A stretch of DNA of 64,000 nt from positions 16,237-80,236 of the forward strand of contig SLJK01000032.1 of NCBI GenBank assembly GCA_007135125.1. The letters are read 5' to 3'. Source of the DNA: Syntrophomonadaceae bacterium. GTDB taxonomy: Bacteria > Bacillota > Dethiobacteria > DTU022 > UBA8154. Below are positions 9,785 through 60,796 of the stretch, one piece after another (position 1 is the stretch's first letter; every line of letters begins with the position of its first letter). The notes beneath the pieces were generated by a model that saw only the letters and a list, made by a program, of their open reading frames with translations, did no database searches and was not told the origin of the DNA. The translations under genes were made by a program, and so were the position numbers.

Positions 9785-10228
9785 TTGCAGTTGGTGATCT
9801 GCCAAATGGAAGAGGATGATTTGGAACAGGTTATTCATATTGAGAAGGAGTCTTTCCGATGTCCATGGTCGCTAAGTTCTTTTCAGAGTGAAATGGGCGT
9901 GAACAAGTACTCCTATTATATTGTAGCCAAAAAGAAGGCAGATAATCTGGTAGTCGGATATACAGGAACGTGGATACTTTTTGAAGAAGCTCATATCACA
10001 ACCCTGGCTGTGCATCCAGATTTCCGCCAGAAAGGAATAGCAGCTATTTTGCTGGAGCATTTGTTAAGTAAATTTAGAAACGTGGGGGTCACCTATATAT
10101 TTTTGGAAGTGAGGAGCTCCAATTATTCCGCCCAAAAGCTTTATGAAAAGTATAGTTTTGCCATAGCCGGGAAACGAAAAAGGTACTATGATGATGAGGA
10201 CGCCATTATAATGGTAAAGCATTTTTAG
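9785..10228 (+). CDS. rimI: ribosomal-protein-alanine N-acetyltransferase RimI (GNAT)
   Basis: 147 aa GNAT (…AVHPDFRQKGIAAILLEHL…) in the canonical tsaB-rimI-tsaD position. TTG start with RBS AAAGGGGAG. Confidence 0.8.
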   Translation: MQLVICQMEEDDLEQVIHIEKESFRCPWSLSSFQSEMGVNKYSYYIVAKKKADNLVVGYTGTWILFEEAHITTLAVHPDFRQKGIAAILLEHLLSKFRNVGVTYIFLEVRSSNYSAQKLYEKYSFAIAGKRKRYYDDEDAIIMVKHF

Positions 10229-29467: not shown

Positions 29468-29543
29468 GCACCTGTAGCTCAGGGGATAGAGCACCGGATT
29501 CCTAATCCGGGTGTCGGAGGTTCGATCCCTCCCAGGTGCACCA
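29468..29543 (+). tRNA. tRNA-Arg (anticodon CCT), CCA encoded
   Basis: 76-nt cloverleaf folded by hand: acceptor GCACCTG/CAGGTGC, anticodon stem CCGGA/TCCGG, loop TTCCTAA, T-loop TTCGATC. Confidence 0.8.
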
Positions 29544-40530: not shown

Positions 40531-40605
40531 TGGTACGCCCGCAGGGATTCGAACCCCGACTTCAGGCTCCGGAGGCCTGCGTGATATCCCTTTCACCACG
40601 GGCGC
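40531..40605 (-). tRNA. tRNA-Arg (anticodon CCG), CCA encoded
   Basis: 75-nt cloverleaf on the minus strand: acceptor GCGCCCG, anticodon loop CTCCGGA, T-loop TTCGAAT. Confidence 0.8.
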
Positions 40606-55791: not shown

Positions 55792-56100
55792 TTATTCTCC
55801 TTCTTTCTGTAAGCGTTGGTTTTGATCCTTCAGCCGTTCTATTTCTTCTAACAACTCCAGAATAACGGCGGCACCGGTCAGATTTATTCCCAGTGTCCGC
55901 CGCAGTCGCAGCACCTTAAAGATACGGTGGACCTGATCTGAGCGTATTTGGGTTCCCCGGGCCTCAATAATCCCTGTTTCTACAAGTTTTTGAAACAGGT
56001 CTAATGGAATACTCAGCCTATTAATATCTATCCAGCGATATTCTTCTTCGGAGATTTCTGCGTCGAAACAGAAAAGCTCAATGCTGTATCTTCTCATCAC
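55792..56100 (-). CDS. MerR-like chaperone-modulator protein (CbpM-like)
   Basis: 102 aa immediately downstream of the DnaJ-homolog gene. Size and arrangement match cbpA-cbpM. Confidence 0.55.
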   Translation of the reverse strand: MMRRYSIELFCFDAEISEEEYRWIDINRLSIPLDLFQKLVETGIIEARGTQIRSDQVHRIFKVLRLRRTLGINLTGAAVILELLEEIERLKDQNQRLQKEGE

Positions 56101-56112
56101 TTACACCCCCAC

Positions 56113-57159
56113 TTAACGATGAACTTGGGCCAGTTTCTGATAGAGTTCTTCTTCCTCGGGACTTATTTCTTGAGGCAGATCTACCACAATCCGTAAATAC
56201 AGGTCTCCCCTGCTTCCATCTTTTTTGGGAAGGCCTTTATCGCGCAGCCTTAGTTTCTGCCCTGTATGACTGCGAGGTGGAATATTGACACGCATAGTTC
56301 CGTCTAATGTGTTAAAGGGCACTTTTTCTCCCAGCGCTGCTTGCCAGGGGTAAACTTTTAGGTCTGCTTCCAGGTCATCTCCTTTTACATTGTAGACTTT
56401 ATGGGGAAGTATTTTTATCTTTAGGTAGAGATCTCCCTGTTCTCCACCGGGCTCGGATTCTCCACCTTGACCTTTAAGGCGAATTTTCTTGCCGTCCCTC
56501 GCATCACGCGGAACTTTCAGCTTGATATTTTTCATCTTGGGGACCTGGCCAGTTCCTCCACAGTAGTTACAGAAGTTTCTTCCTATATGGCCGGCTCCGC
56601 TACATTTATCACAAAGGTCCTGCATGGAAAACTGGATTTGCTTTTCACGCCCATGGTATATTTCCTCCAAAGTAACCTGCAGCTCAGCTTCTACATCTAA
56701 ACCTCGTTGGGGGCGGCGTGTTCTTCCTGCGCCAGTCATGTCTTCTGCATTGAAGCCCGCACCTCCAAAAAAAGCCTCGAAAAAGTCACTGAAACTGCTG
56801 GCTCCGCCACGATCTCCTCCAAAGCTAAAGGTATAATCCTCAAAACCACCTTGCTGGCTTCTTCTTCTGCTATCCGAGGCGCGGAAACCGGAAGAGTCCC
56901 GATAAGCGTTAAAGTCATCACCGTGTTCCCAGTTGGCACCCAGGCGGTTGTATTTTTCTCGTTTTTCCGGGTCGCTGAGCACTTCGTACGCTTCGTTGAT
57001 TGATTTGAATTGCTCTTCCGCTTCCTCTTTTTTCTCGGGTGGCTGGAGATCGGGGTGATGTTTGCGTGCCAGTTTGCGGTAAGCGTTTCGTATATCTTTT
57101 TCAGTTGCGTTACGGTCCAGTCCCAAAACTTTGTAATAATCTTGGTATTTCACTGCCAT
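56113..57159 (-). CDS. cbpA: DnaJ-family co-chaperone (CbpA-like), J-domain plus G/F-rich region plus partial Zn-finger
   Basis: MAVKYQDYYKVLGL…KDIRNAYRKLARKHHPDL (J-domain, HPD), G/F-rich tract, CxxCxGxG x2. ATG 57159 with GGGGTG RBS; the track opens at 57282. Confidence 0.8.
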   Translation of the reverse strand: MAVKYQDYYKVLGLDRNATEKDIRNAYRKLARKHHPDLQPPEKKEEAEEQFKSINEAYEVLSDPEKREKYNRLGANWEHGDDFNAYRDSSGFRASDSRRRSQQGGFEDYTFSFGGDRGGASSFSDFFEAFFGGAGFNAEDMTGAGRTRRPQRGLDVEAELQVTLEEIYHGREKQIQFSMQDLCDKCSGAGHIGRNFCNYCGGTGQVPKMKNIKLKVPRDARDGKKIRLKGQGGESEPGGEQGDLYLKIKILPHKVYNVKGDDLEADLKVYPWQAALGEKVPFNTLDGTMRVNIPPRSHTGQKLRLRDKGLPKKDGSRGDLYLRIVVDLPQEISPEEEELYQKLAQVHR

Positions 57160-57318
57160 TTTATTCACCCCACTTACTATATCCTTTTTGACAGACCCCA
57201 CGATATTATGATTATATAAAAATTGTGCTTCAAAAACAATACTTGCCAGTTTTAGTAAAAATATGCGGGCAACCCTTAGCACATTCCGTTAGTATTCTTT
57301 ATTTACCATCGCAAGCTG

Positions 57319-58671
57319 TTAAAGAGCATATTTTTGTCCCAAGCGTCCGGCCAGAACAACAGGATGCAAGACTGGCCAGAAGGGGGGAGCATAAGAAAGG
57401 TCCATGGTAAAAGCATCTTTAACCGTTTTCTCGTAGGAGATAAGTGCTGCATAAGTGTCTATAGTTTTCACAGCTTCCAGCGGCCCTGCCAGTTGGGCTC
57501 CCAGTATGCGACCGTCCCCACGGTTAACGATCAAGACTGAATACAAGTCTTCAGTTCCAGGGTAGTAGCGTACTTTGGTGCCTGAAGTAAACTCATAGCG
57601 AACAGGGTCAAATCCGCTTTCCCGTGCATCTTCCAGGATGAGGCCTGTGCGGGCGATCCCCAGGTCAAAAAATTTGGTTATGGCGGTTCCTATAATTCCG
57701 GGAAATTGTTCCCTGTTTCCGCAGATATTTAGACCGGATATAAAGCCCTCTTTGTTGGCTTTTGGTGCCAGAGGTACATAAGTAGGCTTACCCGTGATGA
57801 GGTTTGTTCCCTCGGCACAGTCACCTGCTGCATAAATATAATCAAAGTTCGTTTGTAGATAGCGGTTTACTTTTACAGCGCCCTTTATGCCTAGTTCAAT
57901 GGAAGTGTTTTTTAAGAAGTCAGTGTTGGGTTTTACACCGGTAGCTACCAGCACGAAATCATAAAGCAGCTCGTCTGTTTCAGTTGTTACAACTACCCCT
58001 GAATTTACTTCTTCAACTTTTTTTACAGAACTGTTTAAATTAAGCACAATCCCTTTTTGCTGCATTTTGTCCTTGATGAGGTCGGAGATTTTTTGATCAA
58101 AGGTTTTGGCCAGATCTTTTCGCCTGTGAATCAAGTGTGTTTCCAGACCACGCTCTTGGAAAGCTTCCAGCATTTCGACAGCGATATATCCTCCTCCGAT
58201 AACGGCACATTTCCGCGGCTTATTCTTTTCTAGAAAAGCGTTTATCTTCTGCATATCATAAAGGTTTCTAATGGTGAAAACTTTTTTTGAACTAAAAATG
58301 TTTAACCCTTCTGTAATGGGAAGAGTGCCTGTTGCCAGCAGAAGGTACTCAAAAGTTTCTTTTATTTCACCTGTGCTTGATCTTATATGAAGTTCCTTTT
58401 GCACAGGGTCAACACTTATAACCTCATGGTCAAGCCTCAGGTCAATTTTTCTTTCCCGGACAGCCTTTTCCGGACTTAGTTCCAGCAGATCTTCAAAGCG
58501 GGGAACAGTTCCCGCAATATGATACGGCATACCGCATCCTGCAAAGGAGATATACTCTCCTTTTTCCAGCACAATTGCTTCCCACTCCGGTTTTTGCCTT
58601 TTTATCTGGCTGGCAGCAGTCATACCTGCTGCATTTCCTCCCACAATGACTACTTTACTCATATTATCCAC
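57319..58671 (-). CDS. CoA-disulfide reductase / NADH oxidase-family FAD-dependent pyridine nucleotide-disulfide oxidoreductase
   Basis: VVIVGGNAAGMTAA (FAD), …SFAGCGMPY… (single redox-active Cys typical of CoADR/Nox), second Rossmann …AVIGGGYIAVE…. Confidence 0.8.
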   Translation of the reverse strand: MDNMSKVVIVGGNAAGMTAASQIKRQKPEWEAIVLEKGEYISFAGCGMPYHIAGTVPRFEDLLELSPEKAVRERKIDLRLDHEVISVDPVQKELHIRSSTGEIKETFEYLLLATGTLPITEGLNIFSSKKVFTIRNLYDMQKINAFLEKNKPRKCAVIGGGYIAVEMLEAFQERGLETHLIHRRKDLAKTFDQKISDLIKDKMQQKGIVLNLNSSVKKVEEVNSGVVVTTETDELLYDFVLVATGVKPNTDFLKNTSIELGIKGAVKVNRYLQTNFDYIYAAGDCAEGTNLITGKPTYVPLAPKANKEGFISGLNICGNREQFPGIIGTAITKFFDLGIARTGLILEDARESGFDPVRYEFTSGTKVRYYPGTEDLYSVLIVNRGDGRILGAQLAGPLEAVKTIDTYAALISYEKTVKDAFTMDLSYAPPFWPVLHPVVLAGRLGQKYAL

Positions 58672-58807
58672 CTCGGTTTTTGAGATTCAACGGTTTTAAT
58701 TAAAGGAGCAATGTGCTATTTGTGAATATTATATTGTAAAGTATAGCAGTAATTACCATTGAGTTCAACCTGCTTAATAGAGTTTCTCCACCTTGAGTTG
58801 GAAATCG

Positions 58808-58836
58808 TTGACACTTATAAGTGAGTAGGATAAGAT
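58808..58836 (+). promoter_or_regulatory. sigma-A promoter upstream of ferritin
   Basis: TTGACA, a 17-nt spacer, then TAAGAT. Confidence 0.4.
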
Positions 58837-58866
58837 AAACACAACAAATTCTAAGGGGGTAGTGAC

Positions 58867-59376
58867 ATGTTATCTGATAAGCTGCAAAGCGAATTAAATG
58901 AACAGATCAAGTATGAATTTTTTTCAGCTAATTATTACCTGGCTATGGCTGCGTATTGTGCAGCAGAAGGATTTAACGGGTTTGCCAATTTTTTTATAGT
59001 CCAGGCAGAAGAGGAGCGCTTTCATGCCATGAAATTTTTTAATTTTATTAATGAAATGGATGGAAGAGCCCTTATGAAAGCTATGGATGAGCCCAAAAAT
59101 GAATATAGCTCCTTGGAAGAGATCTTTACACTGGCATTTAAGCATGAAAAATTTGTTACAGGCAGGATTTACTCCTTGATGGACCTGGCCATCGAAGAGA
59201 AAGAGCATGCAACTATCAGCTTTTTGAGATGGTTTGTTGATGAGCAAGTAGAAGAGGAGGCCTCCATGAGCGATCTTTTAAATAAAGTAAAACGGTTAGG
59301 TGAAAAAGGAGAAGGTATCTATATGCTTGACAAAGAGCTTTCACAAAGGACTTTTACGGCTCCCTCCGCAGAATAA
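58867..59376 (+). CDS. ftn: non-heme ferritin
   Basis: …EQIKYEFFSANYYLAMAAY…QAEEERFHAMKF… carries the ferroxidase-centre Glu/His ligands of bacterial Ftn. Confidence 0.9.
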   Translation: MLSDKLQSELNEQIKYEFFSANYYLAMAAYCAAEGFNGFANFFIVQAEEERFHAMKFFNFINEMDGRALMKAMDEPKNEYSSLEEIFTLAFKHEKFVTGRIYSLMDLAIEEKEHATISFLRWFVDEQVEEEASMSDLLNKVKRLGEKGEGIYMLDKELSQRTFTAPSAE

Positions 59377-59429
59377 TAGAGTTTATAATGTTAAGCATTC
59401 CACATTATAAAATTATATTCCATAATATA

Positions 59430-59459
59430 TTGACAGGTTTAATTTCTGTTGCTATAATA
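59430..59459 (+). promoter_or_regulatory. sigma-A promoter of the glutamate-synthase-like operon leader
   Basis: TTGACA, an 18-nt spacer, then TATAAT. Confidence 0.4.
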
Positions 59460-59567
59460 ATGATTACAGATTACAAAAGTACTGCTTTTTTCTTAAATTT
59501 CGGGCAGTTACGTTAATTTTAGATGGTGGAATGTAACTTTTCAGTTATAAAGTGATGCGGGCAAAGG

Positions 59568-59612
59568 CGCCCAACAGAGGCTGTTACTTGTGGCCCTGGT
59601 GGGCGTTTTTTT
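59568..59612 (+). terminator. intrinsic terminator inside the 5' leader (candidate attenuator)
   Basis: CGCCCAACAG / CTGGTGGGCG (9/10 bp) with an 18-nt loop, followed by T7. It lies about 110 nt downstream of the promoter -10 and 45 nt upstream of the ATG at 59657. Confidence 0.5.
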
Positions 59613-59656
59613 ATATACTCTTATTGATCAAATAATTGCGCAAGGGGTGATGGGGG

Positions 59657-60796
59657 ATGTGTGGAATCGCCGGGCTTATCAGCCGAAAAAAAGTAAAAGA
59701 AAACGGAAACCGCATCAGAAAAGCTATCGTGCTGCAGAACGACCGGGGAAATGGGCTGGGGGCCGGTTATGCAGCGTACGGCATTTATCCTGAATATGCC
59801 GAGCTTTATGCACTGCATGTTATGGCGGATAACTATTCCTCCATACTGGAAGTAAAGGAGTATTTGCAGCGTTACTTTGAAGTGCATATTATGGAAGATA
59901 TTCCCCTATGGAACAAGAAAATTGTCAACCATCCGTTGTGTAAACGTTTCTTTGTTAAGCCCCAAAGTTCACTTTTAACAGAATCTGTTGAAGAAATAAA
60001 TGAAGATGGCTTTACCATCGAGAAGGTTATGGAATTAAATGGTTCTTTTGATAACGCTTTTATTTTTTCTAGCGGGAAGAATATGGGGGTTTTCAAGGGA
60101 GTGGGAACTCCTGCAGATATTTATGATTTTTTCTGCCTGGATGATTACGAGGGCTATATTTGGTTGGCTCATAATCGCTTTCCTACTAATACTCCAGGTT
60201 GGTGGGGAGGGGCCCACCCTTTCAATTTGTTGAGATATTCCATAGTCCATAATGGAGAAATTTCTTCTTATGGGATTAACAAGCGCTATCTGGAAAGTTT
60301 CGGGTATGTATGCCGTATGCAGACAGACAGCGAAGTAGTTGCCTATCTATTGGACCTGCTGATTAGACGTCATGGCCTATCTGTTCACGAGGCAGCCACG
60401 GTTTTGGCGCCACCTTATTGGACAAGTATAGGGAGATTGGAAGATGAAGAGTCGCGTGACCGTAGGTTGGCTTTAAAGGTTGTCTATGAATCCGCTATGC
60501 TTAATGGACCTTTTGCTATATTAGCAGCTTTTGACAACGGCATGATAAGCTTGACAGATAACACCAAACTGCGCCCCATGACGGTAGCTGCAGAAGGAGA
60601 ATACAGTTATTATGCAAGCGAGGTTTCAGCTCTTTATGAGATGGAAGAAAATCCTACCCATGTTTATACCCCCCGGGCAGGCCAATCCCATGCGGTTTTT
60701 TTAGATGAAGCCAGTGGAAACGGGGGCAAGAAATCTTATCCTAACGAAAACGAAAATTTTTCGGCATCACCAGCAAAAGGAGGTAGCAAGGGATGA
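59657..60796 (+). CDS. class-II (Ntn) glutamine amidotransferase domain protein, archaeal-type GltB N-domain
   Basis: MCGIAGL… (Cys1 nucleophile directly after Met), …AHNRFPTNT…, …HNGEI… are GATase-2 hallmarks. Confidence 0.85.
   Translation: MCGIAGLISRKKVKENGNRIRKAIVLQNDRGNGLGAGYAAYGIYPEYAELYALHVMADNYSSILEVKEYLQRYFEVHIMEDIPLWNKKIVNHPLCKRFFVKPQSSLLTESVEEINEDGFTIEKVMELNGSFDNAFIFSSGKNMGVFKGVGTPADIYDFFCLDDYEGYIWLAHNRFPTNTPGWWGGAHPFNLLRYSIVHNGEISSYGINKRYLESFGYVCRMQTDSEVVAYLLDLLIRRHGLSVHEAATVLAPPYWTSIGRLEDEESRDRRLALKVVYESAMLNGPFAILAAFDNGMISLTDNTKLRPMTVAAEGEYSYYASEVSALYEMEENPTHVYTPRAGQSHAVFLDEASGNGGKKSYPNENENFSASPAKGGSKG

Follow-up and report, generated by a model that had tools for sequence, protein, structure and literature searches.

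A probable ANTAR-type attenuator with a single hexaloop hairpin in the leader of a split glutamate synthase operon

We analyzed a 64,000-nt stretch of DNA from a Syntrophomonadaceae bacterium (contig SLJK01000032.1, assembly GCA_007135125.1; hereafter the window), focusing on the leader of its glutamate synthase (gltS) operon, in which a small hairpin and a strong intrinsic terminator compete for the same nucleotides downstream of the promoter. The operon is of the split, archaeal style, comprises three genes and lies behind a ferritin gene (Table 1). Two further contigs, L093 and L094, come from the same organism, with exactly the same amidotransferase protein, an identical leader and 13 and 24/14,344 nt differences from the window. 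Gene calls and Pfam searches on these contigs placed the end of the third gene at window-equivalent position 64546 and the start of a gene for a 188-aa ANTAR protein (PF03861, 2.4e-19; L094 15076-15642) at window-equivalent position 64732, 732 nt past the window end. An ANTAR domain is thus encoded in the same genome; inside the window, no ANTAR gene was found among the 20 mid-size open reading frames (ORFs; 147-319 aa) scanned with Pfam. Longer contigs show that the cluster is conserved in relatives, in the order ferritin - gltS (three genes) - (NAD synthase, nadE) - ANTAR (~190 aa) - glnA - amt - P-II.

The operon has a predicted sigma-70-type promoter whose hexamers match the consensus at 12/12 positions (-35 TTGACA, 59430-59435; -10 TATAAT, 59453-59458), with a TG at 59450-59451 extending the -10 element. 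At no more than one mismatch, TTGACA-N17-TATAAT occurs at a single site in the 64-kb window, which is this promoter (0.42 expected), and the promoter is kept at the same place in orthologous loci. From its sequence we infer a transcription start site (TSS) near 59465 and a leader of ~98 nt to the terminator base and ~192 nt to the ATG. The terminator hairpin (59563-59610) is an interrupted 18-bp stem with a 9-nt loop and a U7 tract directly 3', that is, a stable GC-rich hairpin with an immediate U-tract; its lower stem pairs 59563-59573 with 59600-59610 and its upper stem 59575-59582 with 59592-59598. A consensus terminator scanner missed it because of the 9-nt loop and the interrupted stem, and it was detected by folding. 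A consensus structure over 7 leaders shows that it is kept in relatives; this conservation, together with its recurrence upstream of further nitrogen genes in the genome, makes the terminator more than a chance structure. Its T-run ends 44 nt before the ATG. Since a sequence scan detected no promoter-like site between the terminator and this start codon at 59657, operon transcripts must cross the terminator. A sequence-only reading of this DNA had already proposed a near-consensus promoter and a terminator at 59568-59612; the former stands by its 12/12 match and the latter by its stability (-25.2 kcal/mol) and conservation, whereas the promoter spacer is 17 nt, not 18, and the terminator stem starts at 59563.

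Table 1 Coordinates of the gltS leader elements and of the genes around them in the window
Feature	Start	End	Strand	Details
Ferritin gene	58867	59376	+	Pfam Ferritin 5e-42
Two conserved boxes, ATTCCACATT (59397-59406) and ATTCCATAAT (59417-59426), 20 nt apart	59397	59426	+	Invariant columns in alignment A1
Sigma-70-type promoter TTGACA-17-TATAAT, extended -10 TG	59430	59458	+	12/12 consensus positions
Small hairpin GUAAC-UUUUCA-GUUAU at the P1 position, 10-nt linker to P2, loop without A1/G4	59533	59548	+	Dual-hairpin model R1
Weak hairpin UAU-AAAGUG-AUG, A1 and G4 in loop, 3 bp, 1-nt linker	59546	59557	+	dG +2.6 kcal/mol
Predicted antiterminator hairpin GGGC-AAAGGC-GCCC, ANTAR P2 type; A59563 = A1, G59566 = G4	59559	59572	+	4 bp, dG -7.6 kcal/mol
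Intrinsic terminator; T7 tract 59606-59612	59563	59612	+	Minimum free energy -25.2 kcal/mol, z -2.3 versus shuffles
Shine-Dalgarno sequence AAGGGGTGA of the first operon gene	59642	59650	+	Read from sequence; GGTG conserved in alignment A1
Glutamate synthase subunit 1, class-II glutamine amidotransferase	59657	60796	+	Pfam GATase_2, GATase_6, GATase_7
Glutamate synthase subunit 2, 4Fe-4S ferredoxin and FMN domain	60793	62313	+	Pfam Glu_synthase 4e-117, Fer4_7
Third gene, GXGXG fused to GltD-like pyridine-nucleotide oxidoreductase	62267	64000	+	Frame open to window end

ANTAR targets have been defined as two short hairpins, P1 and P2, with A1/G4 hexaloops, P2 overlapping the terminator, and with the consensus sequences SYAC-AAHGRH-GUDB for P1 and RRGY-AAHGDV-GCYY for P2 (Ramesh et al. 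2012, PMC3369931). The hairpin GGGC-AAAGGC-GCCC in the gltS leader fits the P2 consensus at every position and has all that marks a P2-type hairpin, namely a stem of at least 3 bp, a hexaloop, A1 and G4. Its loop and 3' arm are the lower 5' arm of the terminator (59563-59573), so that the two structures are mutually exclusive; the sequence-only reading had suggested folding the leader for antiterminators of this kind, and the hairpin is a candidate. In simulated nascent RNA the small hairpin is part of the minimum free energy structure until ~59600 has been made, after which the terminator replaces it; with the small hairpin locked in place, the terminator is reduced to its upper part, which lies 7 nt from the U-tract. 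Each ANTAR dimer was shown to touch one hexaloop only, which led to a revised minimal binding motif (Walshe et al. 2022, PMC8934654). The leader hairpin agrees with this minimal motif, having a single A1/G4 hexaloop on a short stem. A search of the window for a second copy with GGCAAAGGCGCC, at up to two mismatches, returned only chance-level matches.

We further compared the leader with those of related loci. Orthologous operons (65-82% protein identity) occur in metagenome-assembled genomes (MAGs) labelled Dethiobacter and Syntrophomonadaceae, plus two Desulfovibrio-like ones. Hairpin and terminator are kept in L001, in L002 (loop AACGGC, 9-bp stem) and in L004 (loop AAAGGA), with a damaged copy in L005; the remainder of the leader is not conserved in alignment A1, even in the 82%-identical relative. 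Further relatives from a metagenome scan, mostly with 45-50%-identical proteins and unrelated promoters, carry the hexaloop hairpin in many cases. The same design (stem, C-AA[ACGU]GG[CU]-G, overlapping terminator) was found before gltS-like genes of far more distant organisms, as well as before glnN-like and glmS-like genes, as judged by their first translated residues. A hairpin of at least 4 bp with an AAnGnn hexaloop, followed by a T-run, is present in 16/87 gltS upstream regions (26 kb), where ~2.8 would be expected from the rate of 0.11 per kb over all loci and both strands. Similarly, the octamer C-AAnGG[CT]-G has 283 distinct occurrences, of which 19% are enclosed by a stem of 4 bp or more; with three control octamers the figure is 4-6%. 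Among 30 aligned instances from many taxa, A1, A2 and G4 of the loop never change and C-G closes the stem in 28/30, while 4/5 stem pairs vary on both sides, indicating covariation; the covariation score was reached by 0/500 shuffles. Pairing was seen in 90% of cells, against 31-56% with a slid partner, a percentage that is inflated by the partial selection of these instances for pairing, the octamer control being the independent support.

The element recurs in leaders of functionally related genes. Before glnA of the same organism we found GGGGC-AAGGGC-GCCCU with an overlapping terminator, and before an amt remnant GAGU-AAAGAC-GCUC with a terminator; in relatives the motif likewise precedes glnA and amt, and in L002 it precedes asnB. 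In the distant locus L049 the hairpin lies 8 nt 3' of the -10 box and an ANTAR gene belongs to the same cluster. The best Protein Data Bank (PDB) matches of the ANTAR protein are EutV (6wsh, 3e-15) and Rv1626, followed by NasR and AmiR, and the EutV motif EEEAY, which holds the flipped G4, aligns to TEEQAY of this protein. The asnB element of L002 lies on the minus strand (~2605-2655 in plus-strand coordinates), where a divergent asnB gene is preceded by a UGGC-AACGGC-GCCA hairpin with an overlapping terminator; the same arrangement is seen in L005, and this hairpin extends the putative regulon. Of the amt gene, the window organism keeps only Pfam positions 186-264 of 399, joined in frame to mnmG/gidA (L094 17317-19701; window-equivalent ~66973-69357), yet the hexaloop-terminator leader of this fragment is retained. 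In L091 (13430-13810) amt is gone, and a C-terminal P-II remnant alone is left.

Together, these results suggest, with a probability that we put at roughly three in four, that a protein-dependent ANTAR-type attenuator in a single-hexaloop variant controls transcription into the glutamate synthase operon. The sequence-only reading had anticipated conditional antitermination, naming an ANTAR-type regulator first among its candidates, and this interpretation gains from the P2-fitting hairpin, the ANTAR gene 732 nt beyond the window, the glnA and amt elements and the covariation among the 30 instances. The computational analysis shows that the elements are present and mutually exclusive, that they are conserved and covary, and that an ANTAR gene lies with them. 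Binding of the protein to the hairpin is presumed; gene content and published ANTAR nitrogen regulons suggest the signal and a switch to the on state when nitrogen is limiting. In the proposed mechanism, RNA polymerase would start near 59465, at a promoter that probably answers to a factor on two upstream ATTCCA boxes, and would transcribe the ~100-nt leader, in which GGGC-AAAGGC-GCCC (59559-59572) would fold first. If nothing held this hairpin, the emerging 3' arm (59600-59610) would displace it, the terminator would form and transcription would stop at 59606-59612. If the 188-aa ANTAR protein were active, its dimer would clamp the hexaloop at A59563 and G59566 and thereby withhold the lower 5' arm from the terminator. 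This would leave the upper hairpin (59575-59598) as the one structure able to form, 7 nt from the U-tract, and polymerase would read through into the operon. The same protein, acting on the elements before glnA and the amt remnant, would create a nitrogen-assimilation regulon of the glutamine synthetase-glutamate synthase (GS-GOGAT) pathway. The most economical model would have a nitrogen-responsive factor drive both the operon and the ANTAR gene, with the ANTAR protein licensing elongation through three attenuators.

Several findings weigh against this reading. The gltS leaders of L006, L086, L087 and L089 have no hexaloop and carry a different TSS-proximal hairpin instead; the U-tract of L001 is degraded; and in L005 the closing pair of the hexaloop is mutated (GCC to ACC) in a leader that also carries an insertion. 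The position of the phospho-accepting Asp in the receiver is E in our ANTAR protein, D in L086 and S in L087 and L089, and the receiver, judged by its sequence, is probably a pseudo-receiver. In EutV, both hairpins and their spacing are needed for antitermination (Walshe et al. 2022, PMC8934654; Ramesh et al. 2012, PMC3369931), and neither enumeration nor a covariance model gave a convincing P1 in the window leader, that is, an A1/G4 hexaloop at a short linker from P2. The covariance model for dual hairpins (R1), built from 25 published targets, did not report the leader site in a search of the whole window; with filters off, the leader reached 8.8 bits, with P1 aligned to 59533-59548, a hairpin whose sequence is not conserved in L001, L002 or L004. 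The sole A..G.. hexaloop candidate upstream of P2 that enumeration found in the window leader is UAU-AAAGUG-AUG. No equivalent of it was found in L001, L002 and L004, nor upstream of glnA and amt in the same genome; it is probably a chance hairpin. Related leaders scored 11-18 bits with model R1, via the P2 half only. The dual-hexaloop motif envisaged by the sequence-only reading is hence reduced to one consensus hexaloop, P1 not being convincingly present.

One may ask whether P1 has simply diverged, so that the leader would be a canonical dual-hairpin ANTAR target with GUAAC-UUUUCA-GUUAU or UAU-AAAGUG-AUG as its loading hairpin. We consider this very unlikely. The former is a 5-bp hexaloop hairpin in the expected place, with an AC/GU closing pair and a linker within the 5-12 nt of the eut leaders, but EutV required A1 and G4 in both loops and UUUUCA has neither. 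The latter brings a second AAAG 14 nt 5' of the AAAG in P2, similar to AAUAAAGAU located 16 nt 5' in the amt leader of the same genome, yet its hairpin is unstable (+2.6 kcal/mol) and its linker is 1 nt, against 3 nt for the shortest among the published linkers that were compared. Small hairpins also stand 3-9 nt upstream of P2 in L001, L002 and L004, although neither of the two candidates is itself kept in orthologues. Of the 30 instances, 9 have an A..G.. hexaloop further upstream, versus 4.0 expected, mostly on AU-only stems. In at least nine distant loci, L049 among them, a consensus TTGACA-17-TATAAT promoter ends about 9-12 nt before the hairpin, and because the hairpin starts so near the promoter there is no room for a P1.

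We then considered the ferritin gene. No hairpin plus T-run was found at 59377-59430; because the ferritin gene thus has no terminator of its own before the gltS promoter, its transcripts must end at the leader terminator. That the structure is simply the ferritin terminator, the alternative offered by the sequence-only reading, is correct to this extent, but the element persists in L001, L002 and L005, where no ferritin gene lies upstream of gltS. The terminator therefore belongs to the gltS leader, and ending ferritin transcripts is probably its secondary role. In L001/L091 the ferritin gene is gone while its promoter-like TTGACA...TAAGxT remnant stays (window 58780-58866 versus L001 2660-2720), which points to a recent deletion, or to an insertion in the lineage of the window, in the interval from the oxidoreductase gene to the gltS promoter. 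In L005, the 5' half of the terminator is separated from the gltS start codon by a ~650-nt insert (2345-2990) that lacks long ORFs and Rfam matches, and the leader looks disrupted.

More broadly, a plain constitutive terminator could end ferritin transcripts, insulate the two units and damp the gltS promoter by a fixed fraction, with regulation at initiation via the ATTCCA boxes and the hexaloop being only a part of the terminator. The missing ferritin terminator fits this explanation, as do the strongly conserved promoter boxes, which are shared with the ANTAR promoter, and the pairing of loop AAAGGC with the 3' GCC/U-tract, which by itself would select an A-rich sequence. It does not account for the 5' arm of the small hairpin, which the terminator does not need and which nonetheless covaries with the 3' arm in the 30 instances, nor for the 3- to 5-fold enrichment of the hairpin over control octamers or the persistence of the element without ferritin and its recurrence before glnA and amt beside an ANTAR gene. 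Moreover, in the absence of a bypass promoter, a 12/12 promoter ahead of a -25 kcal/mol terminator would leave an essential assimilation operon nearly silenced. We thus regard a constitutive terminator as unlikely.

A regulated terminator outside the ANTAR class, governed by a riboswitch, a T-box, a leader peptide or another RNA-binding protein on the same hairpin, was the least likely of the explanations that we weighed. It would give a role to the ~95 nt between TSS and hairpin, which have no assigned function, and it is compatible with the missing P1, which makes this no textbook ANTAR site, and with most of the distant motif-bearing loci, whose fetched few kb showed no ANTAR gene. Rfam scans with 4227 covariance models, however, gave only chance matches and no T-box or riboswitch at E <= 10 on 58600-60000, and at gathering score they returned two tRNAs alone across the window, L005 and L094. 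The T-box and riboswitch candidates of the sequence-only reading accordingly found no match at either threshold, in a leader that is not conserved upstream of the hairpin. A structured aptamer was rejected on the whole-leader fold (z = 0.16 versus shuffles) and the same lack of upstream conservation. No credible leader ORF emerged for the leader peptide that had also been put forward: the ATG at 59460 precedes the inferred TSS, and the ATG at 59523 (10 codons) has no Shine-Dalgarno sequence and is not conserved. In distant loci, transcripts start a few nt before the hairpin, with no space for an aptamer or a leader ORF, and the loop matches the ANTAR consensus, with an ANTAR gene in the cluster both in this clade and in L049. 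The sole gathering-level Rfam matches in the window itself are the tRNA genes at 29468-29540 (plus strand) and 40534-40605 (minus strand).

An ANTAR-type attenuator at this place belongs to a kind of system that is already known, and the single-hexaloop architecture and the pseudo-receiver are its only unusual points. The eut leaders of Enterococcus faecalis (eutP, eutG, eutS and eutA), controlled by EutV/EutW, likewise carry an AAxGxx hexaloop closed by C-G, the 3' arm of which is the 5' arm of the terminator. Their P2 hairpins include GGC-AAAGGA-GCC in eutP, which is nearly the window hairpin, and UUAAGC-AAAGGC-GCUUAA in eutA. EutV is also a receiver-ANTAR regulator of ~190 aa and, as 6wsh, the best PDB match. 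Unlike EutV/EutW, the window system has no consensus P1, E in place of the phospho-accepting Asp and no adjacent kinase gene, and its regulon concerns nitrogen assimilation, not ethanolamine use. In AmiR/AmiC (amiE leader of Pseudomonas aeruginosa) and NasR (nasF leader of Klebsiella oxytoca), an ANTAR protein similarly overrides a terminator in the leader by antitermination; the pseudo-receiver of AmiR undergoes no phosphorylation, which seems to hold here too, and the nasF P2 (GGAU-AAAGGC-GUCC) resembles the window hairpin. Both differ in their sensory partners (AmiC; the NIT domain) and substrates, and both published targets are drawn with two hairpins.

A parallel in gene content comes from Desulfotomaculum, Carboxydothermus and Desulforudis, where ANTAR targets have been predicted upstream of glnA, amt/P-II and the genes for glutamate synthase and ANTAR proteins (Ramesh et al. 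2012, PMC3369931). Desulfotomaculum reducens, D. acetoxidans, Carboxydothermus hydrogenoformans and Desulforudis share with our cluster the same gene set (an ANTAR response regulator, glutamine synthetase, glutamate-synthase-like genes and amt/P-II) with ANTAR elements and terminators (Ramesh et al. 2012, Fig. 9, Table S2). Those targets contain, and were found with, both hairpins, whereas the window leader scores only 8.8 bits. The D. reducens target, for example, consists of GAAC-AACGAU-GUUC, the linker UAGUC and AGGC-AAUGAU-GCCU. Clo1313_2030 of C. thermocellum lies in a GS-GOGAT cluster with an ANTAR regulator and is linked in the literature to NitR of Clostridium acetobutylicum. NitR is said to be antiterminator-like, to adjoin glnA and to have been proposed as nitrogen-responsive, and a model reportedly adds an antisense RNA. 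The likeness of our locus to NitR and Clo1313_2030 is one of gene neighbourhood, an ANTAR-type regulator with glnA and glutamate synthase, and the comparison covers this neighbourhood only.

We also found a second conserved layer in the promoter region. The boxes ATTCCACATT and ATTCCATAAT abut the -35 element and are unchanged in orthologous promoters. Two such ATTCCAyAwT boxes are common to the gltS promoters of L001-L006, L086, L087 and L089 and to the ANTAR-gene promoter (L094 14935-14974), which is arranged identically in the window organism (ATTTCATATT, 10 nt, TTTCCAAAAT, 2 nt, TTGACAG). Among 94 fetched loci, the box-plus-TTGACA pattern occurs only at gltS and ANTAR-gene promoters of this clade, with an expectation of 0.11 in the window, and the boxes are presumed to be a transcription-factor binding site. 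The 17-mer at 59406-59422, centred near -51, loosely resembles TGTNA-N7-TNACA, the TnrA/GlnR-type site. Sigma-54 and NtcA/CRP-type readings of the hairpin and box sequences were rejected by eye, spacing and half-sites being unfit. An inverted copy of the promoter box, GGAAT, lies inside the window leader (59527-59531), and full GGAAT-N3-ATTCC palindromes occur in L004 (2903-2915) and L006 (3232-3244), shortly 5' of the hexaloop or the ribosome-binding site; these copies could be operators for the same factor or merely small RNA hairpins.

A further element was detected in other gltS leaders of the clade. Right after the TSS, these leaders carry a sequence-conserved hairpin (TAGCTACCnGG...CCnGGTAGCTA) followed by a T-run, at L004 2809-2845, L006 3135-3175, L086 ~9842-9890, L087 ~9834-9875 and L089 ~9820-9860. 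It takes the place of the hexaloop element in L006, L086, L087 and L089, both are present in L004, and the window is without it; it might serve as another type of attenuator or in RNA stability. Upstream of the ferritin gene, the window carries on its minus strand (55792-57282) a DnaJ-like gene and a gene for a small MerR_2 protein, a CbpA/CbpM-like pair that is unrelated to the attenuator and is syntenic with the oxidoreductase-ferritin-gltS region in all close relatives.

Beyond this locus, we tentatively propose, at somewhat less than even odds, that single-hexaloop ANTAR attenuators are widespread in nature and control split glutamate synthase, glnA, glnN-like, amt, asnB and glmS-like genes in many anaerobes, each with one C-AAAGGC-G hairpin against a terminator, often a few nt from the 5' end and without a P1. 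In the present clade, the activity of the cognate ANTAR pseudo-receiver protein may depend on how much of it is expressed or on a partner protein, instead of on phosphorylation. If the proposal is true, this class escaped dual-hairpin searches, which would under-count ANTAR regulons, and it would offer a natural test case for how one hexaloop suffices, given that EutV needs two while its dimer binds one. For the organism itself, the findings would imply two layers of control over nitrogen assimilation, one being the common promoter box and the other the ANTAR-type attenuators in front of gltS, glnA and amt, and thereby provide a testable control mechanism for the GS-GOGAT genes of a poorly studied lineage that is represented by MAGs only and whose relatives are labelled Dethiobacter and Syntrophomonadaceae.

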